From an uncultured virus (IMG/VR IMGVR_UViG_3300002349_000003) (taxonomy: Duplodnaviria > Heunggongvirae > Uroviricota > Caudoviricetes): a stretch of 64,000 nucleotides of DNA. This document shows, in pieces, positions 17,309 to 56,904 of the stretch. Made by a program: the position numbers and the translations under genes. The DNA lies in the IMG/VR virus record IMGVR_UViG_3300002349_000003; one strand, 5' to 3'. The first letter of the stretch is position 1; every line of letters starts with the position of its first letter. A model generated the notes under the pieces. That model did not search any database and was not told the DNA's origin. It saw nothing but the letters and a program-made list of their open reading frames with translations.

Positions 17309-18295
17309 ATGATGATTAACGAATTTTATACAAATGCAATCCAATATGGTAATAAAATACTTGTCAGATCTATTAGAGATGGATTGCCACAAAAGCAGAA
17401 AATCGATTTTTACCCTACCTTATATACCACATCAGGAAAATCTTCAGAATCTTCTTCATTCAAGTCTTTACATGGAGTAGAATTATACGAAATAAAACCG
17501 GGTACCATAAATGATTGCAAAGATTTCATAAAAACTTACGAAAATGCGATGCCTGTGTATGGACAAACAAACTATGCATATCAATATATTGAAGAAAATT
17601 ACAAAACCGATATAAAGTTTGATTCTGACTTATTAAAAATCATTGCTATCGATATAGAAACTGCAAATGAAGAATCTGGTTTTCCTCATCCAAAATACGC
17701 TAATGAAGAAATTCTACTAATTACTGTCAGAGATCTTAAAACTAAATCTACAAAAATATTTGGATCTAGACCTTATGAAGGAAAACATAAAGCAGATTTT
17801 GTCCTTTGTAAAGACGAAAATCAATTACTTCAGCAATTTGTGACTCATTGGCAACAAAGAATCCCTGACATTATTACGGGTTGGAATATTGACAACTTTG
17901 ATATTCCGTACATTATTAATAGACTACTAAGAACTATAGGAGAAGATTATGTTAAAAAACTTTCTCCATGGAATATAGTCAATGAACGTTCTAAAAAGGT
18001 TAATAACGTAGAACAACAGACTTATGAAATACTCGGTGTGTCATCTTTAGACTATATTGAACTCTATAAGAAATATTCTAAAAAAAACCAGGAGTCATAC
18101 AGACTAGACCATATAGCATTTGTAGAACTTGGTGAAAGAAAACTGGATCATAGCCAATGGAATACTTTCAAGGAATTTTACTCTGGTGAATATGACACTC
18201 ATAAAATTAGGCCAGAGTATGAAAATTCGGATACAAAGTCTTATAGAAGAACACAGATAAAATTAGAGTTAATTAGACGCGGACTAACAGTTTAA
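17309..18295 (+). CDS. gp43: Family B DNA polymerase, N-terminal fragment (N domain, ExoI, ExoII)
   Basis: [24 protein letters not shown]; ends before ExoIII. Confidence 0.92.
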
Positions 18296-19133
18296 ATTGT
18301 TTACAGTTTGTGCCATGCCATCTATTATAATTAAGAGGATCAAAACTGCAGTTGCAATATTCACAAAGTATTGATTCTTTCTTTTTCATAGGTGGCAATT
18401 CTATTTCAGATTTGAATACATTTAAAGAACTGTCAAATATTGTCCAAGTTTTAGAAACTAGTCTTGTATTTCCTAGTGTTAAATTATATATTTTCTGTGG
18501 GCTTATTTTTGTTAATTGATGAAATTCTGATATAGTCATATCAAATACATCTTTAGTTATTACATTTTTAAATTTGAAAATGTCTTTTTTAAACCAAGGT
18601 TTACTTTGCTTTGCAATTTTACCAAAATTAATATTTTTACATTCAATAGAACATAATTTCTGGCTAATATTATGTGTAATTATTTCTTTATTACATACGG
18701 AACAATTTATAGTGATATACTTTCTGTTCGATAGCGCTTTCAATGATCTATTCTGTTTAATTATTTCTTTAGTACACGATCTAGAACAACAATTACTGCA
18801 TCCGCTAAATTCTTTATAACAATATTTGCAAATTTTCATTGGCTTAAGTTTTTTAACTCCAGTATTTCCATCTCCGCCATCAGTCTTATTTAGGAGTATA
18901 CCTGTCCCAATGTCTTTTCGCCCATGCCATCTTATCATTCTTCTTTCTATTGCTAATGCTCCAACTTCAGATAAATTCGTTTCTAGGAATATTATCTTTG
19001 TTCTATCCTTTGGCACAGATATTCCTTTATGAATATCATAGGCTCTAGTATTCTTACCTTTTCCAATGTAATATGGTGTTCCGTCTGACTTTCTAATATA
19101 TGCATACACGTAATATATAAGATCGCTGGTCAT
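18273..19133 (-). mobile_element. Free-standing GIY-YIG-like homing endonuclease inserted antisense within gene 43
   Basis: YVYAY...[17 protein letters not shown], several CxxC motifs, C-terminal RWHGTNCK. Confidence 0.85.
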
Positions 19134-19290: not shown

Positions 19291-20970
19291 ATGTTTAGTG
19301 ATATATCAGATAAAGATTTATTAGATGAATATTATAAATTAGATAAAGAAATAAAGCAAGAATCATGGACTACATATACTGATTACAATTATCATGACGT
19401 ATTGCTTATTGATAAATTGGATGAGCAATTAAAGTTTATCGAGTTACAACTCACAATGGCATATACTGCCAAGATTAATTATCAAGAAGCATTTAGTCCG
19501 GTTAGACTATGGGACTCTACAATCTATCACTATCTTATTAATAAGAACATTATTATTCCTAACATGGACAGAAATGTTAAAGGAGAATTAATGGGTGCCT
19601 ATGTAAAGACTCCTATTACTGGCATTCATAAATGGATCGCGTCATTCGATTTGGCATCATTATATCCTCATCTAATAATGCAATACAATATCAGCCCAGA
19701 AACATTAACAACTACGAAATTGTCATTCACTATTGATAATTTATTAGACAAAATTGAACTTCCAAAAGTTGATTATGCAATTACTGCTAATGGTTGGTGC
19801 TATTCTAAAGATAAGCGCGGATTCCTACCAGAGTTGATGGACACTATGTATGCAAATCGTTCTATGCATAAGAAACAAATGTTAAAGCATGAACAGCAAT
19901 ACGAGAGTGATAAGAACAATAAGGAACTATCAAAAGAAATTTCAAGACTTAATAACTTGCAACTAGCTCTAAAGGAAACACTAAACAGTGCATACGGAGC
20001 TATTGGAATGCCATACTTCCGATATTATGATTTGAGAATGGCAGAATCCATAACATCATCTGGACAGTTCTCGATAAAATGGATAGCAAACAGAATTAAC
20101 AAATATTTGAATTCAGCTTTGAAAACAAATAACACCGATTATATTATTGCTTCGGATACCGATTCTGTGTACGTGTCATTGGAAACTTTGGTCGAAACGA
20201 CTCAAGGTGAAAAATCGACAGAAGATAAAATCAAATTCATGGATTCATTCTGCGGCAAAGTCTTAACTCCGTTAATAGAAAAATCATATATCGAGTTAGC
20301 AGAGTACATGAATGCCTATGAACAAAAGATGCAAATGAAACGAGAAGTACTTGCTGATAAAGGTTTGTGGACGGCTAAGAAAAGATATGCATTAAGAGTT
20401 CATAACTCTGAAGGTGTTCAGTATGATAAACCAAAAATGAAAATTATGGGCATTGAGATTGTAAAGTCATCGACTCCAACTGCCATAAGAGAAAAATTGA
20501 AGTCAACTATTGATATTATTTTTAATGACACTAATTTGGACCTCATAAGATTCATTGAAGACACTAGACAGGAATTTAAAACATTAGCAGTAGAAGATAT
20601 TGCTATTCCAAGTACAGTTAATGGAATGATAAAATTTTCTAATGACAAAACTATTTATTCTAAAGGCTGTCCGATTTATGTCAGAGGAGGTTTATTATAC
20701 AATAAAGTTGTTAAAGATATGAAACTTGATCAGAAGTATCCTTTAATAGGCGCAGGAGACAAATTAAAATATGTTTATTTGAAACTCCCAAATACTATTA
20801 AAGAAGATGTTATTGGATTCCCTACTGAATTACCAATGGAATTCGGATTACATAAGTATATTGACTACAACACTCAGTTTGAAAAAGTGTTCTTGAATCC
20901 ATTAGAAAAGATTGTCGATGCTATTGGTTGGAATTTAAAAGAGCAATCGACTTTAGATGCATTCTTCTAA
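19291..20970 (+). CDS. gp43: Family B DNA polymerase, C-terminal fragment (ExoIII, palm, fingers, thumb, clamp-binding tail)
   Basis: YNYHD, SFDLASLYP, K...NSAYG, SDTDS, KKRY, TLDAFF; own GTTTAC-N18-TATTAT promoter and GGAG SD. Confidence 0.95.
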   Translation: MFSDISDKDLLDEYYKLDKEIKQESWTTYTDYNYHDVLLIDKLDEQLKFIELQLTMAYTAKINYQEAFSPVRLWDSTIYHYLINKNIIIPNMDRNVKGELMGAYVKTPITGIHKWIASFDLASLYPHLIMQYNISPETLTTTKLSFTIDNLLDKIELPKVDYAITANGWCYSKDKRGFLPELMDTMYANRSMHKKQMLKHEQQYESDKNNKELSKEISRLNNLQLALKETLNSAYGAIGMPYFRYYDLRMAESITSSGQFSIKWIANRINKYLNSALKTNNTDYIIASDTDSVYVSLETLVETTQGEKSTEDKIKFMDSFCGKVLTPLIEKSYIELAEYMNAYEQKMQMKREVLADKGLWTAKKRYALRVHNSEGVQYDKPKMKIMGIEIVKSSTPTAIREKLKSTIDIIFNDTNLDLIRFIEDTRQEFKTLAVEDIAIPSTVNGMIKFSNDKTIYSKGCPIYVRGGLLYNKVVKDMKLDQKYPLIGAGDKLKYVYLKLPNTIKEDVIGFPTELPMEFGLHKYIDYNTQFEKVFLNPLEKIVDAIGWNLKEQSTLDAFF

Positions 20971-21030: not shown

Positions 21031-21894
21031 ATGTCAGAATTATTAGCAAAAATTAAAAAGACTTGTACCATTAAAGATTCTTCTGTATTGAGTGCATCAA
21101 AATATTTTAATAAAAAGGATATGATTCAAACTCAGATTCCTGCATTAAATGTTGCATTATCTGGAGAATTGGATGGAGGTTTTGTTCCTGGTCTGACATT
21201 ATGGTGTGGTCCAAGTAAACATTTCAAATCGATGTTTTCATTAATCATGGCTAAAGCTTACATGGACAAATATCCTGAAGCAATTATGATTTTTTATGAT
21301 TGCGAATTTGGAACTCCAACTGCGTATTTTAGTTCTCTTAATATTGATACAAATAGAATTCTTCATGTTCCTGTAATGAATATGGAAGAATTCAAATTTG
21401 ATGTCATTAAACAATTAGAAGGACTTGATAGAGGAGATAGGGTAATTTTTATCATTGACTCTCTAGGTAATATGTCTTCCAAAAAAGAAATGGAAGATGC
21501 TATTGATGGAAAATCAGTACAAGATATGTCTAGAGCTAAACAAATGAAATCAATTTTTAGAATGATTACGCCATATCTTAATAGATTAGACATTCCAATG
21601 GTAGCAGTTAACCACATCTATATGTGTGGAACAGAAGAAATGGAAGTTATTTCGGATAATGGTGCAATTAGTCTAAAAAATATCACGCCGGGAATGTTAG
21701 TGGAAACTACCAATGGACTTCAACCCGTCACTAATGTATTTAAGTATGAGGACGCGTATGTGTCTGATATTGAAATGGAAGACGGCACAATACTATCATT
21801 TACACAAGGACATAGATTCATGGTAAATGGAGAATGGGTCTTTGTAGAGGATCTTCAAGAAGGAATGGAACTTGATATAAAACCCATCTCGTAA
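21031..21894 (+). CDS. uvsX: UvsX recombinase N-extein fused to split N-intein
   Basis: GPSKHFKS, FYDCEFG, IDSLGN, VNHIYM then C-initiated Hint domain (T.GHRF) from 21625. Confidence 0.93.
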   Translation: MSELLAKIKKTCTIKDSSVLSASKYFNKKDMIQTQIPALNVALSGELDGGFVPGLTLWCGPSKHFKSMFSLIMAKAYMDKYPEAIMIFYDCEFGTPTAYFSSLNIDTNRILHVPVMNMEEFKFDVIKQLEGLDRGDRVIFIIDSLGNMSSKKEMEDAIDGKSVQDMSRAKQMKSIFRMITPYLNRLDIPMVAVNHIYMCGTEEMEVISDNGAISLKNITPGMLVETTNGLQPVTNVFKYEDAYVSDIEMEDGTILSFTQGHRFMVNGEWVFVEDLQEGMELDIKPIS

Positions 21895-21935: not shown

Positions 21936-22736
21936 ATGAATTATTTGAAACATTACGAATTATTAATTACTAGAGCAAAATCTAGAAGTAAAATTTTAGA
22001 GTATATTGAGAAACATCATATAGTTCCAAAGTGTTTAGGTGGAAATAATGATATTGACAATATTGCTGAACTAACACCAGAGGAACATTATTTTGCCCAT
22101 CAACTACTAGCAAAAATATATCCAGATAATTGCGGGTTAATTAGTGCATGTAAATTGATGGGAGGAAGTATTTCGGGAAAAAGAAGTAATAATAAAATCT
22201 ATGGGTGGATAAGAAGAAAATCTAATATATTGATGGGACAGTCAATTAGGAAACTTCATATTGATAAAAGAGATATGAAGTCTATATCATTAGGATTTGA
22301 AAATTATATTGATATGTCTAAGTCTATATGGGATTTATTCATAACCCATAAATTACATTATACTTCTATAGAAGAAAAATTTGGGGTTAGTCGGCATTTT
22401 ATAAAAAGATCTTTAGAAGTATATGCTAAAGATAATGACTTATTAGATGAGTTAGCTCAAGGTTATTATGATCTTAAGTCAAGCAGTCAAAAACTAGGCA
22501 GATCTAAATTTACTGAAGATCAAGAAAGCAATAGAATAACAGCATTAAAAAATATTGACTATGCCGCTAGATCATTAAAAACCGGTTCTAGAAAAGGATC
22601 ATTAAATCCAACATTTGGTAAAACTTGGTCTCATATTAAAATGATGTGCCCATATTGTAATAAAGAAGTCGGCGGAAAGCGTTGGCATTTTGATAACTGC
22701 AGGAGTAAAAATGAAAATCAAATCAATAAAATTTAA
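21936..22736 (+). mobile_element. Free-standing HNH homing endonuclease between the intein halves
   Basis: EKHHIVPKCLGGNN..N...LTPEEHYFAH; C-terminal CPYC...RWHFDNC; late-type AATAAATA upstream. Confidence 0.9.
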
Positions 22737-23319
22737 TACACGTAAGGCAGATGTTTACGACATTGAAACTCCTACACACGATTATATATTAAAAAACGGA
22801 ATAATTTCTCATAATACACAGGAGCTTTACAGCAAACCTGTAGTTTCTGGTGGAACTGGTGTTTACTTATCTGCTGATAATATTTTTATTCTTGGAAGAC
22901 AACAAGAAAAAGAAGGAACAGAAGTCATTGGTTATAACTTTATCATCAATGTAGAAAAATCAAGATATGTAAGAGAAAAATCAAAAATTCCAATTAGTGT
23001 TCTATTTGAAGGTGGTGTTTCTAAATGGTCAGGATTATTAGAAATGGCATTAGAATCTGGTCATGTCATTAAGCCAAATAATGGTTGGTATTCTAGAGTA
23101 GATAAAATTACTGGTGAGCTTGAAGATAAACGATATAGATTAAAAGATACTATCAATAAAGAATTCTGGCTTCCTATATTAGCAAAAAAGGATTTCCAAC
23201 AATGGATAAAAGAATCTTATAAATTGACAGAATCAGAAATGCTATCTGATTCAGTAATTGAATCAGAATTATCAAAGGTTGAATTAGAGGATTTGGAAAA
23301 AATTTCTGAATTAGTTTAA
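22711..23319 (+). CDS. uvsX: Split C-intein (35 aa) fused to UvsX C-extein
   Basis: AGGAG SD; MKIKSIK...VYDIET..HDY...NGIISHN/T then QELYSKPVVSGGTG, VEKSRYVREKS. Confidence 0.93.
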   Translation: MKIKSIKFNTRKADVYDIETPTHDYILKNGIISHNTQELYSKPVVSGGTGVYLSADNIFILGRQQEKEGTEVIGYNFIINVEKSRYVREKSKIPISVLFEGGVSKWSGLLEMALESGHVIKPNNGWYSRVDKITGELEDKRYRLKDTINKEFWLPILAKKDFQQWIKESYKLTESEMLSDSVIESELSKVELEDLEKISELV

Positions 23320-31847: not shown

Positions 31848-32403
31848 GTGGTTAACCTACCTTCTTAGTGGCATCTCATTCTTAGGACTTGTTCTAGGTG
31901 TATTGATACCAATTCCTGCTCATTACAAGATGGCTCTGTATTCTGGGTTAGGCATGTTACTATGCCTGAATTCATTTGCTATAGGAGTTTCGGTAAACGA
32001 AGCAAACTGGCAAGTAAAAGTTAAAGATATGCAAATCCAGATTGCACAACTAGAAACCAAAACTGCTGAAGTGACGACAAAAGTTGTTACTGAATATATA
32101 GAAAAAGTCAAAATAGTGGAAGGCAAAACTCATGTTATCATTAAGAAAGTTCCTGAATATATTACCAAAGAATCTGATGCTAAGTGTAGTATCAATACTG
32201 GTGCTATCGAGTTGCTCAACGCTGCCGCAGAAAACAAAGTTCCCGAATCCTCCAGAACTTCTTATGAAGGACCCTCCGATGTTAAACTCTCTACCCTTGT
32301 TGAATCCGTCAGTGGAAACTACGGTACGTACTATCAAGTAGTAGAACAACTTAAATCACTCCAAGATTGGATTAGAAAACAAAAGGATTTGAACAATGAG
32401 TGA
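31822..32403 (+). CDS. Inner-membrane spanin (Rz-like)
   Basis: N-terminal TM helices, coiled coil, C-terminal LQDWI; embedded lipoprotein gene. Confidence 0.8.
   Translation: MFLLNLIPEWLTYLLSGISFLGLVLGVLIPIPAHYKMALYSGLGMLLCLNSFAIGVSVNEANWQVKVKDMQIQIAQLETKTAEVTTKVVTEYIEKVKIVEGKTHVIIKKVPEYITKESDAKCSINTGAIELLNAAAENKVPESSRTSYEGPSDVKLSTLVESVSGNYGTYYQVVEQLKSLQDWIRKQKDLNNE
32132..32341 (+). CDS. Outer-membrane spanin lipoprotein (Rz1-like), embedded in the +1 frame
   Basis: Hydrophobic signal with lipobox LSSC; Pro-rich FPNPPELLMKDPP. Confidence 0.8.
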   Translation: MLSLRKFLNILPKNLMLSVVSILVLSSCSTLPQKTKFPNPPELLMKDPPMLNSLPLLNPSVETTVRTIK

Positions 32404-32833
32404 CCATAATTCACCATGTAATGACCTTAATAAACTTGTAACTGAAGTAGCTGTTCTGCAGAATGTAGTTTACAAGATAGATAATACAGTTGCAGAAATT
32501 GCTAAAGCATCGTCAGAAGTATCAAGATTATTAATAGTACACGACAACAGACTAAACAATCTTGAGAATAATAATAAAGAAACTACAACTGATGTCAAGG
32601 ATCTATACAAGAAAATGGAAGAAACTACTAAAGAGATTGTGGATAAGTTAGATGATATGGAATTTCGTATTGAATCTAAACTTAAAGAACATGAAGAAAA
32701 ATCAGATGAATATAGAGAAGATATTTCTGAAAGGTTGAATGCATTAGAAACTTGGAAGTGGTTAGTAGTTGGTGGCAGTATAGTAATTGGATACCTTATT
32801 GACCATTCAGATATATTGAAACTATTCAAATAA
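32396..32833 (+). CDS. Coiled-coil protein with C-terminal TM helix (lysis-associated candidate)
   Basis: RLNALETWKWLVVGG; adjacent to spanins. Confidence 0.55.
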   Translation: MSDHNSPCNDLNKLVTEVAVLQNVVYKIDNTVAEIAKASSEVSRLLIVHDNRLNNLENNNKETTTDVKDLYKKMEETTKEIVDKLDDMEFRIESKLKEHEEKSDEYREDISERLNALETWKWLVVGGSIVIGYLIDHSDILKLFK

Positions 32834-32838
32834 TAATA

Positions 32839-32901
32839 AATTAGTATTGATAAGACCAGTTAATTTATTATACATCAAACCCAGTCAAAAGTAAACATTA
32901 T
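32839..32901 (-). promoter_or_regulatory. Antisense early-type promoter, copy 2
   Basis: Minus strand GTTTAC-N18-TATAAT; matches 6021-6085. Confidence 0.7.
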
Positions 32902-33031
32902 TCCCTAAAATAATTCAACAGTTATCACTTTATAGGTGATGCTGTGTCACGAGTAAAATTTGCTAAATAGTGTGTACAAATATCAAAAATATGATATAAT
33001 ATAATCTTTATTCTACTACAAAAGGTGATCT

Positions 33032-34138
33032 ATGAAATTAGCAGTATTGAAATTAGGCGCAAGAATTGTTTTTGGCCAAAAGGTTGGATCAAGCGGAGGA
33101 TCAGGTGAAGCTGCTTCTTTAATAGAAATGATGGTTGAAGGTGGATGTGAAGTTGACTGTTATACTAAGGTATTGTCTTCAGATCAACAAAACAGATCAG
33201 TCAACGTGCTTAATATTGAAGACCATTATGAGAATATTACCAGTAATGTATACGATGCATTAGTAGTCATTAATGGCGCTGTTAATTTCTTTGGTGGCCA
33301 AGAAGACAGACCACAGATTCTTAATTATAAAGCAATAAACAACTTTAATGGAAAAATCATTTACTTGTACTGTGACCCGAATTTATCTCTAAAACAAATT
33401 TGGCCTTCTATTGAGAAGAAACCCTGGGCTTCAAATTGGAATAAGGAAGATATTAATATTACAAAGCCTATTAATGTGATTTCGCAATCATACAATTTAG
33501 AAAAAAATAAAGCACTATTTGAGAAAAATGGATATCCTGTAGAATCTATTGTGCAATATGATTTCCAAAAATTCCCAATGATGAAACCAAGAGAAACTTC
33601 TATTCTAGGAAAGACTGTTGATTTGTCTTATGGAGGAACCTTTAGATCTGGTAGAAGAGAAAAGAAATTAATAGAATTCTATTTTGGACTCCCAGAAGAT
33701 ATTTCGGTAGAAGTATTCGGTAAAATTAAAATTACGGACTTTAATGAGAAAAAAGTAACCGGATTACGTCCGCCAAAGTTTCTTCCTCCAGTCGATTATA
33801 ATAATATGATTCAGAAAATGTCTTCTTCTAAAACCCATATTGCTATTGGTGATAATCAATACCCAGATTTTGAAATGATCTCTCAAAGAGTATATGAATC
33901 TATTATGGCGGGAACTTTATTATTCATTGATAATGAATTTGATAAGAATAAAAGAATTTTTGGAAACAATACTGAACTTTCCAATTTGCTATATATCAAT
34001 GACAGAAATCAATTTGCAGATAGATTAAAATCATTGTCAGATTCTGATTACGAATCACTAATAGAACTTCAACATTCATGTGTAGATTTTAATAAATCAG
34101 AATATTGTTTAAACTTTGTAAAACTTTTGGAGGTATAA
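33032..34138 (+). CDS. bgt: DNA beta-glucosyltransferase homolog (GT-B)
   Basis: NFFGG, QIWP.IEKKPW, YGGTFRSGRREKK, IGD..Y, RVYE, IDNEFD match T4 BGT motifs as recalled. Confidence 0.88.
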   Translation: MKLAVLKLGARIVFGQKVGSSGGSGEAASLIEMMVEGGCEVDCYTKVLSSDQQNRSVNVLNIEDHYENITSNVYDALVVINGAVNFFGGQEDRPQILNYKAINNFNGKIIYLYCDPNLSLKQIWPSIEKKPWASNWNKEDINITKPINVISQSYNLEKNKALFEKNGYPVESIVQYDFQKFPMMKPRETSILGKTVDLSYGGTFRSGRREKKLIEFYFGLPEDISVEVFGKIKITDFNEKKVTGLRPPKFLPPVDYNNMIQKMSSSKTHIAIGDNQYPDFEMISQRVYESIMAGTLLFIDNEFDKNKRIFGNNTELSNLLYINDRNQFADRLKSLSDSDYESLIELQHSCVDFNKSEYCLNFVKLLEV

Positions 34139-34139
34139 T

Positions 34140-34952
34140 ATGGAACAAGAAAAAGACGTATTTGATGACAGTTCAGCAGTATTTTTTAAAAATGGATTCC
34201 TTGGTAAAATAAAATTTTCCAGTGCATGGCATATTGCATTCATTAGCAGATATACTTCAACATGCACAGAAATTACCAAAATCAAAAGAAAAAATACTGA
34301 AGATTATGTTACTATATTAGATGTTGGGTGTGGTAATAAAACATTCTATCAATTTTGGTCTAAAAGTTTTGAAAGTTTATTGCGTCCCAGAGTGGATTAC
34401 TTGGGTTTAGAATATGAACAATCTGTTGTAGATGAAGCAAATTCACCAACTGGAAGAGAATCTGTCAACAAATACAAAGTCATTCACTGTGATCTAAATA
34501 CTACTTCATTTCATGACATTAAGCATCACGACAAATATGACGTAATTCTGTTGCAGGAAATTCTAGAACATATTCCAAAAGAAACTGCATTGAAACTTAT
34601 AAAAGAAGCATCTGAATTGGTATCAGATAGAGGATTTATTGTCATATCATCTCCTAATCCAAAAAAGGACGAAGGTCAAGAATTTGTATGGCCAGAGAAT
34701 CACATTCAAGAGTTTACTTTGGACGAAATGCATGATATGATAACCACTAATGGATTAAGTATCAGAAGAGTCAATGGGTGGTTAGGTAAAGCCAGATATT
34801 TTAAAAAGCATTTGAGTTCTAACAATATGGCTCTATATAACCAATTAAAAGGGATTTCGCAAGGATTCGCGGCAAGTACGATAGCATTTCTAAATCCAAA
34901 GATTGCAGAATGTTATATTTTTATTGCAGAAAAAAATAAGGGTATATTATGA
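34140..34952 (+). CDS. Class I SAM-dependent methyltransferase
   Basis: ILDVGCG, YDVILLQEILEHI, ISSPN, HIQEFT. Confidence 0.9.
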   Translation: MEQEKDVFDDSSAVFFKNGFLGKIKFSSAWHIAFISRYTSTCTEITKIKRKNTEDYVTILDVGCGNKTFYQFWSKSFESLLRPRVDYLGLEYEQSVVDEANSPTGRESVNKYKVIHCDLNTTSFHDIKHHDKYDVILLQEILEHIPKETALKLIKEASELVSDRGFIVISSPNPKKDEGQEFVWPENHIQEFTLDEMHDMITTNGLSIRRVNGWLGKARYFKKHLSSNNMALYNQLKGISQGFAASTIAFLNPKIAECYIFIAEKNKGIL

Positions 34953-36661
34953 AAATCGTAATATTTTCAGGTGGCACTGGTTCAGTTCAATTACAGAAAG
35001 GTCTATATGAAACATTTGGTAAAGATGTATTAGACTATACGGTCATTACAAACTTAGCGGATAACGGTCTTTCTACTGGAGAATGCAGAAAAGTTATGGA
35101 TGGAAAAATTATGGGTCCGTCCGATTTAAGAAAGAATCAAATGCTAAGAGCAAAACTGGAAAATAGTATATCAGAAAAATTGTATGAATTCCTAAATGAC
35201 AGAATAACTATTTCTGCCGATGAAGTTCAATCGGTGCTTTTAGACAGAATCCATAAACTAGACATTGATATGTTTTATAGAGGTGTATTAGCTTCTGGAG
35301 TGAATCAATTCTTTGATAGCCAGTTATCATCACAGATAGATTATATTGACTTTTCAATTTCTAATATCATTTATTCTGGAATAGCAAAGAAACATAACTA
35401 TTCATTGGATTCTGCAGGAAAAGTATTTGAAGGAATATTAGACATTCCAGAGAATAGTGTAATTTCTAATACTGATTCTCCGATGTATCTTATGGCTAAA
35501 ACCCAATCTGGTTATATTATACATGACGAAGCTGATATAGTATCATGGAATAATCCTGATGATAAAATCGTAGATTGTTTCTTTGTTGATAACCATAATA
35601 AGCCAGTAATTCCAGAATTATCAGAACTTTCGAAATCTGTAATATTATCAGCAGACATTATAATTTTTTCATCCGGGACTCAATGGTCATCTCTTATTCC
35701 GACATATAAATCCATAGGATTCTCTGAAACTATATCAGAATCGAAAGCAAAGAAATATTTAATTCTTAATGCTAGTCAAGATGCTGATATGAAAGGTGTA
35801 TCTGGTGACGAATTGATTAATATTCTTATGGGTTATTTACCAAAAGATACTACTATCATTTCTGCTTTAGACGGTGACCCTTTATTAATTCCTGATTCGT
35901 ATCAAAAAATCTCAGCTTTCTTACTTAATCAGGGTAAACACGACGGGAAGGCATTGGTAAAAACTATTTTTGACCACTATTATAATTACCCAAAGATTAG
36001 TGACCAATACGTTTTCGATTATGATGATACTATTGTTGCTAGAGGCTCGCAGCACTCTAAAGTATCTAAATCCAATGTCAAAAGAGTTCAAGAACTTTAT
36101 AATAAGACTAATAATGTTTGGATATCTACTGGAAATACTATCAATGCTTTGCATGGAAATTTTTCTAATATTAAAGCATTAGCAGATGGTGGTGTTAATC
36201 TATACAAATTTAATAAAGAAGGAATTCCGCAATTCGAAAAATGCCTAGATAATGATTTACTTTTCTCTAAAAATGATATAGAATATATTACGGCAGATAT
36301 TGTAGACTGTGGAATTGATATTACTAAAATCCAAATACGTGGAAAGGTAATGATTTCTATCAAACCAATATCTCCTGAATACAGACATAGCATTAAATTA
36401 TTATTAGAATCTAAACTAAGCAAATACGATCTATTAATTAGAATGTCTGGAAGAACAACGATTGACATTACAAAACCAAACTTGGATAAAATTTTAGCAA
36501 CAGAAACTCTATTCGTTAATGATTTTACTTATATTGGTGATGAAGGTGAATCTGGCAATGACCACCAAATATCACAATGTGGACATTGCAATTTTATACC
36601 AGTTAAAGATGTCAAAGATACTAACATGTACTTAGCAATTCTATTGGGAAAAGATGATTAA
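34949..36661 (+). CDS. YvcK/CofD-family domain fused to a HAD-IIB phosphatase/phosphomutase
   Basis: N-term FSGGTGS, DNGLSTG, GPSDLRKN, GTQWSSLIP; C-term FDYDDT, STGN, GRTTIDI, YIGDE...GND. Confidence 0.82.
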   Translation: MKIVIFSGGTGSVQLQKGLYETFGKDVLDYTVITNLADNGLSTGECRKVMDGKIMGPSDLRKNQMLRAKLENSISEKLYEFLNDRITISADEVQSVLLDRIHKLDIDMFYRGVLASGVNQFFDSQLSSQIDYIDFSISNIIYSGIAKKHNYSLDSAGKVFEGILDIPENSVISNTDSPMYLMAKTQSGYIIHDEADIVSWNNPDDKIVDCFFVDNHNKPVIPELSELSKSVILSADIIIFSSGTQWSSLIPTYKSIGFSETISESKAKKYLILNASQDADMKGVSGDELINILMGYLPKDTTIISALDGDPLLIPDSYQKISAFLLNQGKHDGKALVKTIFDHYYNYPKISDQYVFDYDDTIVARGSQHSKVSKSNVKRVQELYNKTNNVWISTGNTINALHGNFSNIKALADGGVNLYKFNKEGIPQFEKCLDNDLLFSKNDIEYITADIVDCGIDITKIQIRGKVMISIKPISPEYRHSIKLLLESKLSKYDLLIRMSGRTTIDITKPNLDKILATETLFVNDFTYIGDEGESGNDHQISQCGHCNFIPVKDVKDTNMYLAILLGKDD

Positions 36662-37406
36662 TTTAATTATTATAGCTGCTGGAAACGGCAAAAGAATGGG
36701 AAACATTAATGTTCCAAAAGTATTATATCCAGTAAATGGAGTTCCTAATTTAAAAAGAATTATTACTAATGCTATAGAGTCCGAAGTATTTGACTCTATA
36801 GATTTAGTAATTAAAGATTCTGCAGTAAAAAGTTTTAAAGAATTTTTGGATAATAGTGAATTTGATATTAAAATAAATCTAATTCCTATAAATTCGGGAC
36901 TAGGAGATGGACATGCAATTCTTTCCATGTATAAGAATGCTCATCAATATAACAATTCTATATTGGTATGGGGCGATGTTTATATTGATAGTCCAATGAT
37001 ATTCAAAGAATTGAAAGATGTTGGAAGTTCTACTGGTAATAACTTTTCAAGCGCAGTAATTCCGGTATGTACTGAAAAGAATCCTTACGTTACTATATTG
37101 ACTGATTCTAATATGAACGCATTATCAGCAGACTTCTCTAAACTTGGAGAAACTCATTTGGAAGGATTCCACGATCAGTCTATATTCTATATCAATAACG
37201 ATGTAATATATGATAGTCTTCAAAAAATGCATGAAGTGTTATGGAAAAATGGACAATACATTACTCAATCAAAAGAATTAAATTTCTTACATATTCTTCA
37301 TTATTTAAGAAATATTAATTACCCAGCAAATTGTTATATTACTGAGTACCCAACAAAGTCGTTTAATAGTATTGAAGAATTGACAAAATTGGAAAATTCA
37401 TTATGA
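36654..37406 (+). CDS. Sugar-phosphate nucleotidyltransferase (NTP_transferase/GlmU-N-like)
   Basis: IIAAGNGKRM...PK.L, GLGDGHAI, WGD, FNS.EEL. Confidence 0.85.
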   Translation: MINLIIIAAGNGKRMGNINVPKVLYPVNGVPNLKRIITNAIESEVFDSIDLVIKDSAVKSFKEFLDNSEFDIKINLIPINSGLGDGHAILSMYKNAHQYNNSILVWGDVYIDSPMIFKELKDVGSSTGNNFSSAVIPVCTEKNPYVTILTDSNMNALSADFSKLGETHLEGFHDQSIFYINNDVIYDSLQKMHEVLWKNGQYITQSKELNFLHILHYLRNINYPANCYITEYPTKSFNSIEELTKLENSL

Positions 37407-37717
37407 TAAAAACCGATAAAAAATATATCCTATTGGGATCATCGAGACTTAGAAATTTTAAACAAGTTAATGATTCTGCTTGGAGATTCTCTTGCAATTA
37501 TTGTGGTGATTCTGTAAAGAATCCAAAGAAGACCCGCGGAAATATATACATGAAACACCACAAATTTCTTTATAAGTGTTTTAACTGCGGAATTTCTAAA
37601 TCTATTTCTGAATTCATTAAAGATTTGGATTCTAATTTGCATACAAAATATGAAATGGAAAATTATAAAGAAGGATCCTCAATCTCACCAGATTTATCAA
37701 TGTTCGGAGTAAAATGA
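37403..37717 (+). CDS. Stand-alone zinc-binding domain of a gp61-type primase
   Basis: C.YCGDS..N.KK.RG, YKCFNCG; stops after 104 aa with no TOPRIM domain. Confidence 0.8.
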   Translation: MIKTDKKYILLGSSRLRNFKQVNDSAWRFSCNYCGDSVKNPKKTRGNIYMKHHKFLYKCFNCGISKSISEFIKDLDSNLHTKYEMENYKEGSSISPDLSMFGVK

Positions 37718-37818
37718 AACTTTTGTTGCATCAACTATTAATTCCATTAATTACTTCCATAGTAATAACATACATAATTTACATATTGTAAGGAATCGCA
37801 TGACACACAGGGGAATAC

Positions 37819-38811
37819 ATGGCTATTAGAATCTTAAGCCCAAAGAGTGAATATATTACTGATTATCCAACTGCTATAGAATTTTCAGAACAACAGGCAT
37901 CAATAATTTGGTTTCCAGATGAAATAGAAGTAGAAAAGGATCTTCATGATCTGAAGACGAATTGCACAGAATCAGAGTATCACGGCGTAATATCAACACT
38001 GAAATTATTCACTCTATATGAATTAAATGTTGGTAATGATTACTGGCAAAATTATGTCAGTAAAGTCTTTCCTAGACCAGATATTCAAAGAATGGCCTCT
38101 ACCTTCTCGTTTATGGAATTAGGAGTACACGCTCCATTCTATAATAAAATCAACGAAGTTCTTGGATTAGATAATGTTGACTTTTATAACTCTTACAAAG
38201 AAGATGAAGTACTAGCCAATAGAATGAATTGGATTGCAAAAAGAACTACTAAAAAAGATTCTGTGTACAATGTCCTAAAATCGGTTGGAGTGTTTTCAAT
38301 GATTGAAGGAGCTATTCTTTATAGTTCATTTGCATTTCTTAAACATTTCAACTCGGCAGGAAAAAATAAACTCATCAATATAAATGCTGGAATAAATTTT
38401 TCAGCAATTGATGAAACCTTACACTCACAAGCAGGCGCATGGTTATTCAGAACATTAAAGTCAGAAGCTTTCGCCGATGAACAATTGACCTCTATTGAGT
38501 TAGTTGGCCTCAAAGAAGAATTGATAGAAACCGCAAGAGTTATTCTAGAGCACGAATCAATTATTATTGATAAAATTTTTGAGAAGGGCCATATTAAGGG
38601 AATAACAAACACCCAATTAAAAAACTTTGTTGAATCTAGATTAGATATATGTCTAGAAAATCTTTCATATAGTGGAATATTTAAACCGTCTTATAACCCA
38701 ATTAAAACCTGGTTCTATAAAGATATTGAAAGCTCAACTTTACATGACTTCTTTTCAAGTCAAGGTAATGATTATAGTCGCAATTGGTCAGAAGGAAAAT
38801 TTCAATGGTAA
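37819..38811 (+). CDS. nrdB: Ribonucleotide reductase class Ia beta subunit
   Basis: W...E, E..H...Y, EGAILYSSF, DETLH, DFF. Confidence 0.93.
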   Translation: MAIRILSPKSEYITDYPTAIEFSEQQASIIWFPDEIEVEKDLHDLKTNCTESEYHGVISTLKLFTLYELNVGNDYWQNYVSKVFPRPDIQRMASTFSFMELGVHAPFYNKINEVLGLDNVDFYNSYKEDEVLANRMNWIAKRTTKKDSVYNVLKSVGVFSMIEGAILYSSFAFLKHFNSAGKNKLININAGINFSAIDETLHSQAGAWLFRTLKSEAFADEQLTSIELVGLKEELIETARVILEHESIIIDKIFEKGHIKGITNTQLKNFVESRLDICLENLSYSGIFKPSYNPIKTWFYKDIESSTLHDFFSSQGNDYSRNWSEGKFQW

Positions 38812-50397: not shown

Positions 50398-50448
50398 TGT
50401 TTACAAATGTGGCATTTTGAATTATAATTAATTTTTTTGGAGTTTAAT

Positions 50449-50853
50449 ATGAGTACAAATTTTGTAAAAGATATTTCTGACATGCACACCAAGTTTGGTG
50501 TTAACACTACAGTTAATAAGTTTGATAAAGAAAGATTAACAGCATTTCTGGATTTTAGAATTGGGTGTTTGCAGGAAGAATTAGATGAACTTAAACATGC
50601 TGAAAATGCTGATGATGCGGTAGATGCCTTAATAGATCTAATAGTATTCGCAGTAGGTACCTTAGATGTGTACCAGGTTGACTCTGTTAAAGCCTGGCAA
50701 AGAGTGTATGATGCTAATATTGTTAAAGAAGTAGGAATTAAGGAAGGTAGACCCAATCCTTTTGGATTACCCGATCTAATTAAACCAGAAGGTTGGGTTG
50801 CTCCATCACATGTAGATAATGTTGGTTTATTAGATATAGTGTTTGCGGATTGA
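50449..50853 (+). CDS. MazG-like nucleotide pyrophosphohydrolase (candidate dCTPase)
   Basis: EELDEL, DALIDL..F..G, V.DAN..K, DLIKPEGW. Confidence 0.8.
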   Translation: MSTNFVKDISDMHTKFGVNTTVNKFDKERLTAFLDFRIGCLQEELDELKHAENADDAVDALIDLIVFAVGTLDVYQVDSVKAWQRVYDANIVKEVGIKEGRPNPFGLPDLIKPEGWVAPSHVDNVGLLDIVFAD

Positions 50854-50854
50854 T

Positions 50855-51835
50855 ATGTATTCTCTGACGGCCTTTGCATCGATATACGACAACAAAACTC
50901 ACCGTCAAGTAAGCCATAACACCTGGGAGTCGTTTGAGAAAATGCTATATGGCATGTCAAAACTTCCAGGTTATAAACTTAAAAAGGGAGAATTCAGAGC
51001 GCCTAAAGGTGTTAAGGCTTCTCCCTTAATCACACCAGCTTCTTATAGAGAAGGAACAACCCGTTCTAATGATGCTGTTGTAGAATGGTCTGGTTGGGCT
51101 GCACTTGATATTGATAACCATGTCTTTAAAGGAAACCTTAAAGAAGAGTTAAGTGAGAAATATGGAAAGACCTATTTTGTATGCTATTCTACATCAGGGT
51201 CAACGGTAGAACATCCTAAATTTAGACTAGTATTTCCATTAACTGGTTCTGTGAAAAAGGAAAAGATAAAACATTTTTGGTTTGCCTTGAATAGAGAGTT
51301 TGACGATCTTGGTGATGGTCAAACAAAGGATCTTTCCAGAATGTATTACGTGCCTGCGATTTATCCTAATGCTTATAATTTTATCTTTACTAATATTGGT
51401 GAGATTATAGACCCTGATAGATTAATGTTCAATCATCAGTATGAGCAACCGCGAGGACCTCTAAGTATATTAGAACAGATGCCGTCAGATATTCAAAAAA
51501 TGATACTAGCTCAAAGAGCAGATATGCTTGAGGAAATCTCGCATAAGAATTATTCGTGGTCTTCTTATGAGGATTGTCCGTTCGTAAACAAAAAAATGAT
51601 TCATGAGTATAGTTCTATAGCACATACCGATGGTTCTGGAAGATATGCGATGATGTATAAAATCATGACAAGTATTGCGTGTAATGCTATAAGAAGAAAG
51701 TATCCATTGAATGCTGTACAATTGGAAGAATTAATCCGTCAATTGGACAGAAACACTTCTAACTGTTATTCTAAGCGTCCTCTTCATACCGAGTCATCTA
51801 GAGCAATAGAATATGCTTATAGGAATATTAACTAA
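50855..51835 (+). CDS. AEP-superfamily primase-like protein
   Basis: WAALDID, YSTSGST...PKFRLVFPL, DLSRMYYVP; helical C-terminal domain. Confidence 0.75.
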   Translation: MYSLTAFASIYDNKTHRQVSHNTWESFEKMLYGMSKLPGYKLKKGEFRAPKGVKASPLITPASYREGTTRSNDAVVEWSGWAALDIDNHVFKGNLKEELSEKYGKTYFVCYSTSGSTVEHPKFRLVFPLTGSVKKEKIKHFWFALNREFDDLGDGQTKDLSRMYYVPAIYPNAYNFIFTNIGEIIDPDRLMFNHQYEQPRGPLSILEQMPSDIQKMILAQRADMLEEISHKNYSWSSYEDCPFVNKKMIHEYSSIAHTDGSGRYAMMYKIMTSIACNAIRRKYPLNAVQLEELIRQLDRNTSNCYSKRPLHTESSRAIEYAYRNIN

Positions 51836-52427: not shown

Positions 52428-52837
52428 ATATGACTGAAGCAAAACGTAAATCTGTTGAAGTATTAGAAGAAGCAATTGCTCTTCAAATTAAGAAAGGTAA
52501 TGATTACCAGAATTCTGCATCAAGAGTAAGACAGGCAGATTACTATCCTCACGGAATCAATAGTATTTTAGATACTATTAATGCTAAAGTCTTACGAATG
52601 TTTTCTGTTATTGAAACAATGGAAGCGGGTGGATCTGTCAATTTTGAATCAATCGAGGATTCTGCTATCGATGGAATCAATTACTTATCATTCTTAGTTT
52701 CATACATGAGAGGTGAAATCGATGGTCAACAACCTGATAGAGATATTTTCAATAAGACGGGTCAACAAAATCGTGCCTTAATTCCTACTAAATTCAGAAC
52801 ACAAACTGGCGGCAATATTATTGGAGTAAACAAATAA
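52424..52837 (+). CDS. Nucleotide-modification-associated helical protein (DUF1599-like)
   Basis: Q.KKGNDY, K.LR, ES.EDS..D.INY; adjacent to dCMP hydroxymethylase. Confidence 0.65.
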   Translation: MNMTEAKRKSVEVLEEAIALQIKKGNDYQNSASRVRQADYYPHGINSILDTINAKVLRMFSVIETMEAGGSVNFESIEDSAIDGINYLSFLVSYMRGEIDGQQPDRDIFNKTGQQNRALIPTKFRTQTGGNIIGVNK

Positions 52838-53505
52838 TGGAACAATACTCTGTAAAAGATATTAGAAATGAATTTAAGTCACTATTGGAAAATGACGAAT
52901 TTGTAATAGACAAGACCGGTTGCAAAATGGTTGAAATTGCCGGAACATCATTTATTGCTAGTGAACCTACTATCTTTGGAACTCTTAATGAAGACTATGC
53001 TAAAAGAGAAATAGAATGGTACAAATCCATGTCTCTTAACGTTAATGACATTCCAGGTGAAACTCCAGCAGTGTGGAAACAGGTTGCTGATGCAAATGGA
53101 ATGATCAATTCTAATTATGGTTGGTGTGTTTATTCAAGAGAAAACCATTATCAATTCCAGAACGTACTTCAAGAATTAGTAAGAAATAGATTCTCTAGAA
53201 GAGCAATAATGATTTATACCCGGCCTTCTATTTGGGCCGAATTTGAAACCGTGGGAATGTCTGATTTTATTTGCACCAATACAGTTCAATATCTTATTAG
53301 AAATAATAAACTTCACGCATTTGTACAAATGCGGTCAAATGATGCAATTTTTGGATATAAAAATGACTTATATTGGCAACAGCACGTCCATACTGAATTG
53401 CATGAATGTCTTAATGAGAGTGGAGTACAATGCGAAATCGGTGATATTATCTGGAATGCAACATCGCTTCATGTTTATGAAAAACATTTCCATTTGATAA
53501 AATAA
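52837..53505 (+). CDS. gp42: dCMP hydroxymethylase (thymidylate synthase fold)
   Basis: INSNYGW, SRRA, DFICT, MRSNDAIFGYKND (Asp specificity residue), SLHVYE. Confidence 0.9.
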   Translation: MEQYSVKDIRNEFKSLLENDEFVIDKTGCKMVEIAGTSFIASEPTIFGTLNEDYAKREIEWYKSMSLNVNDIPGETPAVWKQVADANGMINSNYGWCVYSRENHYQFQNVLQELVRNRFSRRAIMIYTRPSIWAEFETVGMSDFICTNTVQYLIRNNKLHAFVQMRSNDAIFGYKNDLYWQQHVHTELHECLNESGVQCEIGDIIWNATSLHVYEKHFHLIK

Positions 53506-55914: not shown

Positions 55915-56904
55915 ATGAAACAATATTACGATCTTCTTCAGAAAATCATGGAAACTGGTAATCCAACTAATGATAGGACAGGAGTTGGCACTCTTTCACT
56001 TTTCGGCGAGCAACTTAAATTCAATCTTCAATCTGGATTTCCTTTACTTACTGGCAAGTTTACTTCATTCAAGACAATCTCAAACGAACTGTTGTGGTTC
56101 CTGAATGGGTATACAAACAATGAAGATTTAAGAAAATTGAATGGTAATGATAAACCAACCATTTGGGAAGAATGGTCAACGCCTTCGGGTGACTTAGGTC
56201 CAATCTACGGTAAACAGTGGCGTAACTGGGGTGCCGTTCCTATTCCAAATATGCCAACAGAATCTATGGATGGTATTGACCAAATTGAAAATCTTATCCG
56301 TGGTCTTAAAGAAAGACCATTCAGTCGTCGTCATATTATATCAGCATGGAATGTTGCTGATTTGCCAAGCGAAGAATTAACGCCTCAAGAAAATGTAGAA
56401 TCAGGTAAGATGGCTTTGGCGCCTTGTCATGCATTTGTTCAGTTTGGTGTTAGAGAATTATCCTTCAGTGAACGCGCTGTTCTGTATGTCCAGAAATATT
56501 TTGGTACTCATTTTGGACTTGGATATGATAGGGACTATGAGAATCTTATGAATAATGTTGGTGTTCCTAAATATGGATTATCTTGTCATTTATACCAAAG
56601 AAGTGCTGATATCTTTTTAGGAGTTCCCTATAACATTGCTAGTTATGCGTTGTTCACTGAAATACTCGGCAATTTGACAAATATGTTACCAGAGAATTTG
56701 ATTATCTCATTTGGCGATGTTCATCTATATAAGAATCATATCAACCAAACAAAAGAACTACTATCGCGGAATCTTGCAGAATATGCATTACCTACGTTGG
56801 TATTCAATGACCATTATAATTCTATTGATGAGATTAATGAATATAGTTATACCATTAAAGATTACCGGTCACTTGGATCTATTAAAGCAGAGGTTGCGGT
56901 GTGA
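55915..56904 (+). CDS. td: Thymidylate synthase
   Basis: DRTGVGT, ELLWFL, GPIYGKQWR, MALAPCH, YQRSAD.FLGVPYNIASY; no intron. Confidence 0.96.
   Translation: MKQYYDLLQKIMETGNPTNDRTGVGTLSLFGEQLKFNLQSGFPLLTGKFTSFKTISNELLWFLNGYTNNEDLRKLNGNDKPTIWEEWSTPSGDLGPIYGKQWRNWGAVPIPNMPTESMDGIDQIENLIRGLKERPFSRRHIISAWNVADLPSEELTPQENVESGKMALAPCHAFVQFGVRELSFSERAVLYVQKYFGTHFGLGYDRDYENLMNNVGVPKYGLSCHLYQRSADIFLGVPYNIASYALFTEILGNLTNMLPENLIISFGDVHLYKNHINQTKELLSRNLAEYALPTLVFNDHYNSIDEINEYSYTIKDYRSLGSIKAEVAV

Follow-up and report, generated by a model that had tools for sequence, protein, structure and literature searches.

The beta-glucosyltransferase (BGT) of phage T4 takes its UDP-glucose from the host, and T4 has no enzymes for donor supply. 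Here we describe a gene cluster on a 64,000-nucleotide stretch of DNA of an uncultured tailed virus (Caudoviricetes; IMG/VR record IMGVR_UViG_3300002349_000003), referred to at its full length as the window, in which the gene of a BGT homologue is followed by the genes of a class I S-adenosylmethionine (SAM) methyltransferase, of a fusion protein with a YvcK/GlmR-like and a HAD-IIB domain, and of a nucleotidyltransferase. As judged from homology and gene context, this cluster is probably a DNA-glycosylation unit with its own sugar-donor supply. The module is real and strongly conserved, and it probably represents a new form of phage cytosine glycosylation, with a YvcK-like fusion protein at its centre.

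When compared with the glucosylation of 5-hydroxymethylcytosine (5hmC) in T4, the window system is similar in its predicted acceptor chemistry, in its homologue of the T4 dCMP hydroxymethylase gp42 (E 1e-78) and in having a BGT homologue with conserved key positions; the gp42 and b-gt genes are neighbours in T4 too. It differs from T4 in that the transferase is coupled to a mutase-YvcK fusion, a nucleotidyltransferase and a methyltransferase, and in that its BGT belongs to a separate clade. Phage-encoded donor pathways for DNA glycosylation are already known, for arabinose, for a pentose and for TET-linked glycans. The Afh genes for arabinosyl-5-hydroxycytosine of RB69, DLP3 and HY126 provide a phage-encoded nucleoside diphosphate (NDP)-sugar route for a DNA glycosyltransferase (PMC13326640), and in that system, too, a HAD-type enzyme and a sugar-1-phosphate nucleotidyltransferase are clustered with a thymidylate-synthase homologue. 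The Afh route involves an arabinose-5-phosphate isomerase, a kinase and a HAD phosphatase, and its 5-hydroxycytosine comes from a D169N-type synthase (PMC13326640), whereas the window system has Asp at D169, a mutase-type HAD domain, a YvcK-like domain and a BGT-like transferase; no arabinose-5-phosphate isomerase was seen in the window annotation. The Shewanella phage Thanatos, which is also T4-like, combines in one cluster a candidate DNA glycosyltransferase with a UDP-sugar pyrophosphorylase of its own, but its donor is a pentose (xylose-type; PMC12838424), and diverse glycans in TET-linked clusters are described in the preprint of Pyle et al.

The closest relatives of the individual domains are found outside DNA modification. 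The YvcK/GlmR proteins (UPF0052) of Firmicutes and Actinobacteria are the best sequence and fold match of the N-terminal half of the fusion protein, which retains their motifs, and Listeria GlmR converts N-acetylglucosamine (GlcNAc) 1-phosphate and UTP into UDP-GlcNAc in vitro (PMC10128056). Unlike these proteins, the window domain is fused to a mutase, is paired with a nucleotidyltransferase and is encoded outside a yvcJ-glmR-yvcL operon. The CofC/CofD (FbiD/FbiA) pair is similar in the superfamily and fold of the N-terminal domain and in the adjacent nucleotidyltransferase gene; it is different in that the profile match with CofD is marginal and the nucleotidyltransferase is of the sugar-1-phosphate type, and F420 genes were not seen in the window annotation. 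CofD, YvcK and phosphomannomutase (PMM) are not mentioned in the available text of PMC13326640, of the main text of PMC12838424 and of the Pyle et al. preprint. In the literature that was searched, neither a description of the cassette nor a link of the YvcK/CofD families to phage DNA was found.

Conservation of the module in other viruses

In two scans of viral contigs, 38 loci were found; at 90% identity they fall into 27 groups, the window's own group included. The nucleotidyltransferase is present in 26 of these groups (25 with a distance of at most 100 bp and the same strand) and BGT in 25 (22 with at most 1.3 kb and the same strand). The core of the module consists of BGT, the fusion and the nucleotidyltransferase, in this order. 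Of the 27 groups, 17 have a gp42-like gene at a distance of at most 10 kb, 12 have a guanylate-kinase-like deoxynucleoside monophosphate (dNMP) kinase and 8 have a MazG-like protein. The genes of these MazG homologues (52-58% identity) follow that of the dNMP kinase, at about 0.5-0.8 kb from the nucleotidyltransferase gene on its downstream side. The sequence-only reading had proposed a search for the same neighbourhood in other phages, and in many phages the BGT/YvcK-HAD/nucleotidyltransferase trio does have MazG-like, gp42-like and dNMP-kinase-like genes beside it.

Eight records of the annotated phage collection match the fusion protein, six of them over the N-terminal half only. The two full-length matches have 41% identity (cultured Ralstonia jumbo phage RsoM2USA) and 35% identity (an uncultured phage of 462 kb). 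The same two phages provide the best BGT matches among 122 records, and in both of them a nucleotidyltransferase gene and a gp42-like gene are also nearby. A term search of the RsoM2USA paper (PMC8504454) shows that DNA modification is not discussed there.

The two groups without BGT, those of L027 and L028, have other cytosine-modification genes near the fusion and nucleotidyltransferase pair. In L027, a gene of the TAGT / beta-glucosyl-HMC-alpha-glucosyltransferase family (L027:7247-8218; PF20691 E 9e-26, phrog_842 E 7e-50) is located 1.8 kb upstream, and L028 has a C5 DNA methylase gene (L028:5768-6979) and a Lar-like gene, with no TET/JBP gene among the 25 open reading frames (ORFs) that were scanned. 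It was also considered whether the gap between the BGT and fusion genes is a 'tailoring slot', and this idea was rejected: the gene found there in L010 and L021 (c94; L010:8931-9734) encodes an HNH homing endonuclease (phrog_559 E 2e-42), with a weak PvuRts1I-like N-terminal match (E 0.0065), and the two other occupants, c103 and c105, match no family; enzymes are thus not a consistent feature of this position. As a separate observation, a thymidylate-kinase-like protein of 189 aa (L015:8275-8844 and homologues; phrog_761 E 5e-10, no Pfam match) is encoded just upstream of BGT and is present in 18/27 groups; no homologue of it was found in the window.

The gene context also bears on the nature of the acceptor. 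The BGT homologue and the donor module might have a protein, a component of the virion or a molecule of the host envelope as their target, in line with the virion and lysis-type genes that precede the cluster in the window and with the use of the donor pair for surface glycans in bacteria (see below). We regard such a target as highly improbable, considering that the transferase has a DNA enzyme as its nearest characterised relative and keeps the catalytic and donor residues of that enzyme, and that most phage loci embed the module among gp42-like, nucleotide-kinase-like, MazG-like, dCMP deaminase and dUTPase genes. Moreover, where BGT is missing, another family of hmC-DNA glycosyltransferases is present instead, as in L027.

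The BGT homologue and the predicted 5hmC acceptor

The matches of the BGT homologue with PF09198 (E 2.7e-30; 105.7 bits, with a cut-off of 27), with phrog_7922 (E 2.1e-62) and with the T4 BGT structure (E 8e-44) are all significant, in agreement with its earlier identification as a homologue of T4 BGT; the two proteins share 29% identity. The window protein and 24 module-type homologues (25 sequences) were aligned with the enzymes of T4, PS2 and CC31. The window protein has all of the residues E22, D100, R191, R195, Y261, R269 and E272 (T4 numbering), each of which is kept in 96-100% of the 25 sequences. We take R191, R195, Y261, R269 and E272 to be the UDP-contact positions of T4 BGT, and D100 is reportedly the catalytic base, as stated in the title of a 2003 paper by Lariviere. 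The neighbours of D100 differ from those in T4, PS2 and CC31, with T99C in 92% and I101P in 100% of the 25 module-type sequences. The module-type BGTs also form a separate clade, with a 100/100 branch from the T-even enzymes when these are represented by three rows only. From these comparisons, the BGT homologue is most likely a DNA beta-glycosyltransferase, predicted to glycosylate 5hmC.

The predicted source of the acceptor is encoded elsewhere in the window. The gp42 homologue has Asp at the equivalents of L143, D169 and N177 of Escherichia coli ThyA. In the criteria of Lee et al. (NAR 2026; PMC13326640), an Asp signature distinguishes 5-hydroxymethyl-dCMP (5hmdCMP) synthases, and D169N the 5-hydroxy-dCMP synthases. 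By these criteria, the sequence marks the product of 52837-53505 as a predicted 5hmdCMP synthase. Two other assignments were ruled out, that of a 5-hydroxy-dCMP synthase by the Asp at the ThyA D169 position and that of a thymidylate synthase by the Asp signature; a separate canonical ThyA is encoded at 55915-56904. The Asp/Asp/Asp hydroxymethylase signature is also present in 24 of the 24 gp42-like proteins of the related loci. The gp42-type hydroxymethylase of the window phage, with its Cys/Asp/Asp signature, bears out the placement of the cluster in DNA cytosine hypermodification by the sequence-only reading. The window annotation shows no alpha-glucosyltransferase. At 329 aa, the canonical thymidylate synthase exceeds the usual length; it matches phrog_160 over the full length and phrog_5682 in two separate segments, a pattern suggestive of an insertion in the protein.

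The nucleotidyltransferase and the HAD domain

The protein encoded by the last gene of the module matches NTP_transf_3 (E 2e-7) and, in a profile comparison, the N-terminal domain of GlmU (E 1e-16). Its structure model (pLDDT 94.2) superimposes in Foldseek on GlmU, HddC, RmlA and UDP-glucose pyrophosphorylase over the full length (about 255 columns) with query-normalised TM scores of 0.72-0.80, and the N-terminal G-x-G-x-R...K signature is conserved, residues A9, G10, R14 and K22 being invariant in the family. The best single-sequence matches in the Protein Data Bank (PDB) are alditol-phosphate cytidylyltransferases of the IspD/TarI type, an assignment that was dropped on the full-length match with the sugar-1-phosphate fold. 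When family, profile and model are considered together, the protein is assigned, as had been proposed earlier, as a sugar-1-phosphate enzyme; it is not of the IspD or CofC type.

The HAD half of the fusion protein is weakly recognised on its own, by Hydrolase_3 (18 bits, cut-off 20.9) and by the HAD-IIB model TIGR01484 (29.8 bits, cut-off 41.8). The profile of its family matches the PMM structure 7myv (E 2e-17), PMM2 (E 3e-13) and the alpha-phosphoglucomutase 4bnd (E 5e-12), whereas its matches with phosphatases are not significant (E 0.2-0.5 for trehalose-phosphate phosphatases). The fold comparison is in agreement with this, as Foldseek ranks PMM and alpha-phosphoglucomutase above phosphatases, and the resemblance to PMM that had been noted from the single sequence is thus preserved in both family profile and fold. 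The HAD motifs DxDxT, Lys and GDExxxGND are invariant in 40 sequences (D357, D359, T361, K514, G530, D531, N537 and D538), and the domain also keeps Arg residues and a T-x-D motif aligned with residues of PMM that presumably bind the substrate. On sequence and model, the domain is assigned as a mutase of the phosphomannomutase/alpha-phosphoglucomutase type.

The YvcK/GlmR-like domain

The fusion protein is modelled with high confidence (pLDDT 93.8, pTM 0.89). PF01933 (CofD) covers residues 3-330 (E 5e-21). In profile comparisons with the PDB, the N-terminal half matches YvcK (2ppv) with E 3e-31, whereas CofD (3c3d) is matched with E 2e-3 over 36 residues only. The same order is observed in Foldseek, with E 2e-15 for YvcK (2ppv/2o2z; target-normalised TM scores of 0.76-0.79) and E 2e-10 to 8e-8 for CofD/FbiA (0.62-0.68). 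The YvcK family motifs GGTG, DNG-STG-R, P-D-RN and R-F are all retained, and the score with the YvcK/GlmR model TIGR01826 (UPF0052) is 60.4 bits against a cut-off of 196. By these sequence comparisons, the N-terminal half classifies as a divergent relative of YvcK/GlmR and not as an equivalog. From the earlier designation as a YvcK/CofD domain, the YvcK/GlmR part is retained and an identity as a true CofD is not, and CofD-style phosphotransfer is then just one option for its function. The domain has 24 invariant columns among 26 sequences, and its mean column identity is 41%, compared with 33% for the HAD domain and 34% for the nucleotidyltransferase.

In this option, which resembles the CofC/CofD system, the nucleotidyltransferase would activate hexose 1-phosphate, and the CofD-like domain would then move the hexose 1-phosphate to a hydroxyl group of 5hmC or glucosyl-5hmC with release of NMP, the BGT using UDP-glucose of the host. 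True CofD moves a phospho-substituent from a GDP-activated donor to a hydroxyl, and the domain belongs to the CofD superfamily, as seen from the PF01933 and CofD/FbiA matches. The pairing with a nucleotidyltransferase mirrors that of cofC and cofD, and every domain would have a necessary role. Still, the formation of such a phosphodiester is improbable. The domain is far nearer to YvcK than to CofD, and the nucleotidyltransferase is of the GlmU/RmlA type, PF01983 (CofC) not being among its three Pfam matches at E <=0.1. In addition, the same domain occurs with a DNA acceptor in phages and with lipid or polysaccharide acceptors in bacteria, which fits better with a role in donor synthesis than in the final transfer.

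The fusion and nucleotidyltransferase pair in bacteria

The fusion family is large: of 8000 candidates that were scored, 527 proteins match it at E <=1e-5, and an exhaustive search gives 4053, 1382 and 427 clusters at E 1e-3, 1e-10 and 1e-30, respectively. Bacterial members were sampled in 36 genome loci, mostly from metagenome-assembled genomes of gut Firmicutes. In 34 of these loci, the nucleotidyltransferase gene adjoins the fusion gene, and BGT, gp42 and the methyltransferase are each absent from all 36. The neighbouring genes encode instead glycosyltransferases of the families GT2 (18/36 loci), GT8 and GT4, Wzx-type flippases, Wzz, an initiating sugar transferase, LicD and an epimerase. 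The sequence-only reading had held that co-occurrence with surface-glycosylation genes rather than with gp42 and BGT would speak against it. The phages have the BGT and gp42 genes, as it expected, whereas in bacteria the pair is located in polysaccharide loci. This occurrence in polysaccharide loci without BGT or gp42 shows that the fusion and the nucleotidyltransferase are a portable sugar-donor module. The pair is not an invention made for DNA but a general donor module that has been recruited for this purpose. Its partners are DNA glycosyltransferases in phages and surface-glycan transferases in bacteria.

Natural fusion proteins (P0241, P0222, P0221, P0231 and P0257) also connect these functions. 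Among six longer members that were scanned, four have the arrangement CofD-HAD-nucleotidyltransferase (715-807 aa) and one is a GT2-CofD-HAD protein of 1007 aa with a synthase-type GT2 domain.

A described relative of these loci is found in Mycoplasma fermentans, where the glucofuranan synthase, which makes a polymer of beta-1,6-glucofuranose, is encoded in a Clostridia-like island and is flanked by genes of a CofD-family protein and an NDP-nucleotidyltransferase (PMC11658790). By analogy, this island is a single, imperfect hint at the product of the module. Its polymer is reportedly unbranched and undecorated (PMC11658790), and so phosphate-free, which also argues against the phosphodiester discussed above.

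The methyltransferase

DNA methyltransferases are defined by the motif (D/N/S)PP(Y/F/W), or by PC plus ENV. The motifs [DNS]PP[YFW], PC[QH] and ENV are present neither in the window methyltransferase nor in five relatives from related loci. The protein matches Methyltransf_31, 23, 12, 25 and 11 (E 3e-10 to 5e-6), its UbiG-like match is far below the cut-off (40 versus 103 bits), and its profile finds weak generic matches only in the PDB; comparison with the ESM Atlas gave generic CofD and methyltransferase clusters only. The description as a class I SAM methyltransferase without DNA-methyltransferase motifs is therefore sustained by the motif check and by the matched families. Its inclusion in the core of the operon is not, as it is present in only 4/27 module groups. 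The family is small (16 proteins among 489 candidates). On its sequence, the protein is a candidate for accessory tailoring, as a class I enzyme of the small-molecule type.

In L025, a homologue of this methyltransferase and a hexapeptide-repeat acyltransferase (PF00132 E 5e-27) are encoded just upstream of BGT (L025:5998-6954 and L025:7564-8436), a gene set that suggests lineage-specific tailoring of the sugar.

Proposed pathway and the nature of the donor

With a HAD domain of the mutase type and a last gene for a sugar-1-phosphate nucleotidyltransferase, synthesis of its own activated donor by the phage, as had been proposed, is the natural reading of homology and context. In this pathway, the gp42-type enzyme would replace cytosine by 5-hydroxymethylcytosine in the phage DNA. 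The mutase domain would convert hexose 6-phosphate into hexose 1-phosphate, from which the nucleotidyltransferase would make an NDP-hexose. As the UDP-contact residues of T4 are kept in the BGT homologue, this would probably be a UDP-hexose. The BGT homologue would then move the sugar from the donor to 5hmC in DNA. The YvcK/GlmR-like domain may bind or act on the nucleotide sugar, by conversion of the donor, by a second nucleotidyl transfer or exchange, or by sensing of the end product. In the weakest step, the coupled SAM methyltransferase may methylate the sugar in this lineage.

Within this donor-supply reading, the donor may quite possibly be other than ordinary UDP-glucopyranose, whereas ordinary UDP-glucose is the less probable case; the remaining probability is shared by the phosphodiester, by targets other than DNA and by unlisted readings. 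Hints at a non-standard donor are provided by the variable polysaccharide loci of bacteria, by the T99C and I101P changes, by the separate BGT clade and by the M. fermentans island, and a non-glucose, methylated sugar on 5hmC is plausible.

In the ordinary-glucose case, the mutase and a GalU-like step would top up UDP-glucose independently of the host pool, with the YvcK-like domain as a UDP-sugar sensor that regulates the fused mutase, in the way GlmR regulates GlmS; the product would be plain beta-glucosyl-5hmC, and the methyltransferase would act elsewhere. The seven T4 BGT positions from E22 to E272 that are kept in the module-type enzymes agree with this, as do the alpha-phosphoglucomutase 4bnd among the best HAD matches and the retention of all YvcK family motifs. 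T4, however, needs no such genes, and the YvcK-like domain, as the best conserved part of the module with many invariant polar residues, looks more like an enzyme than a sensor. The flanks of the catalytic Asp are consistently unlike those of the T-even BGTs, and the donor pair is located in variable glycan loci of bacteria that are expected to have housekeeping UDP-glucose genes of their own. A sensor function is nevertheless compatible with the binding of UDP-Glc and UDP-GlcNAc by Bacillus subtilis YvcK (PMC5482804) and with the antagonism of GlmR by UDP-GlcNAc (PMC7525490). Altogether, ordinary glucose is a possible but doubtful outcome.

A more specific proposal for the YvcK/CofD-like domain is that it is a new nucleotide-sugar enzyme which, together with the mutase and the nucleotidyltransferase, makes an NDP-hexofuranose, for example UDP-glucofuranose. 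The phages would then carry hexofuranosyl-5hmC, O-methylated in the lineage of the window phage. We put this forward as a speculation, and a rather unlikely one.

Several observations weigh against a non-glucose donor made by the phage, or against the DNA-glycosylation unit as a whole. The sugar, the nucleotide and the linkage are all inferred from sequence or context. The BGT homologue keeps all of the UDP-contact and catalytic residues of T4 BGT named above, and it could therefore simply use host UDP-glucose. Genes for ordinary UDP-glucose supply are sometimes present in polysaccharide loci, as in the pneumococcal type 3 locus, so the bacterial context is no proof of a rare sugar. A gp42-like gene is not seen within 10 kb in 10/27 groups, some of whose loci are short or truncated, and the methyltransferase is without a specific family assignment. 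At the position of Gln76 of GlmU, the residue that reads the uracil (PMC10128056), the nucleotidyltransferase family has an Ile that is nearly invariant. Finally, the CofD-family gene of M. fermentans is reported as two pseudogene pieces, and the polymer is still made (PMC11658790).

Organisation of the cluster and of the window phage

The four ORFs of the module lie on the + strand at the coordinates given for them by the sequence-only reading (Table 1). They belong to a series of five + strand ORFs (33032-37717) that follows a gap of 198 nt and is itself followed by nrdB and nrdA. A single nucleotide separates the BGT gene from the methyltransferase gene, the overlap of the latter with the fusion gene is 4 nt, and that of the fusion gene with the nucleotidyltransferase gene is 8 nt; the genes of the cluster are translationally coupled.

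Table 1. Coordinates of the gene cluster, its promoter candidate and the hmC-pathway genes in the window
Feature	Position	Strand	Basis
Promoter candidate, sigma-70-like	32973..33000	+	TGTACA-16-TATAAT, TG before -10; 10/12 matches
BGT homologue, 368 aa	33032..34138	+	PF09198, phrog_7922, PDB 1bgt
Class I SAM methyltransferase, 270 aa	34140..34952	+	Methyltransf_31/23/12/25/11
Fusion protein, 570 aa	34949..36661	+	YvcK/GlmR-like and HAD-IIB domains
YvcK/GlmR-like (CofD superfamily) domain of fusion	34949..35980	+	PF01933, 2ppv profile
HAD-IIB phosphohexomutase-type domain of fusion	35981..36661	+	7myv, PMM2, 4bnd profiles
Sugar-1-phosphate nucleotidyltransferase, 250 aa	36654..37406	+	NTP_transf_3, GlmU profile, fold
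Zinc-ribbon protein, 104 aa	37403..37717	+	phrog_451 E 2e-20; primase zinc-finger phrog_47 E 2e-15
MazG-like NTP pyrophosphohydrolase, candidate hmC-pathway dCTPase	50437..50853	+	phrog_671 E 4e-18; PF01503 E 9e-5
dCMP hydroxymethylase, T4 gp42 type, 222 aa	52837..53505	+	PDB 1b49 E 1e-78

A single early promoter had been proposed for the cluster. A sigma-70-like site is present within the 198-nt gap, the sole sizeable gap upstream of the cluster, but the region 32300-38000, which is AT-rich, has 39 promoter-like sites compared with 35.0 (sd 6.3) in shuffles. As such sites are no commoner than in the shuffles, 32973-33000 is a candidate only; on its sequence a promoter at this position is plausible, and its assignment to the early class is an inference. 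The T4 late-promoter motif TATAAATA has 8 matches compared with 12.8 expected, and no terminator-like sites were found between 32300 and 38000.

The fifth ORF, which encodes the zinc-ribbon protein and was not part of the earlier description, overlaps the nucleotidyltransferase gene by 4 nt and is probably co-transcribed with it. It is located beside the module only in the window's own group and is not a conserved member. The protein resembles the N-terminal zinc finger of primases, and an ORF for the catalytic part of a primase is found 13 kb away (50843-51835); by these matches, the primase of the window phage may be split in two.

The window phage is a T4-like myophage with a G+C content of about 32%. 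Homologues of the T4 proteins gp23, gp21, gp22, UvsY, gp55, gp46/47, gp45/44/62, RegA, gp41, NrdAB, ligase, Td and Frd are encoded in the window. The major capsid protein shares 61% identity with its counterpart in Synechococcus phage S-WAM1, and at the nucleotide level there are two short matches with known phages; G001 is a 34-kb fragment of the window phage. Two further genes are interrupted. The family B DNA polymerase (gp43 homologue) is encoded by two ORFs, 17309-18295 and 19291-20970, which match positions 4-331 and 300-851 of phrog_262, and between them an ORF of 286 aa is located on the - strand (18273-19133; phrog_15526, no known function). The UvsX recombinase is encoded in two parts, with an ORF for a homing endonuclease between them (phrog_655 E 8e-45; the three ORFs are 21031-21894, 21936-22736 and 22690-23319), and this interruption could be an intron or the insertion of a free-standing endonuclease.

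Implications

Which defences (restriction, type IV, CRISPR) are escaped or triggered depends on the sugars that phage cytosines carry; those known are glucose, gentiobiose, arabinose, a pentose and the glycans of TET-linked clusters. Hexofuranosyl-5hmC, if the corresponding proposal is true, would be a DNA modification that is so far undescribed, and bacterial polymers such as the glucofuranan of M. fermentans would receive their sugar from the same set of enzymes. The cassette is widespread and unstudied, being present in T4-like and jumbo phages, of which one is cultured, and its fusion protein represents 427 clusters at the strictest threshold. From it, the tools for 5hmC labelling could gain a new nucleotide sugar as well as the DNA glycosyltransferase that goes with it. 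It would also be a direct way to learn the chemistry of the YvcK/CofD-like proteins, including GlmR in Firmicutes and CuvA in mycobacteria.

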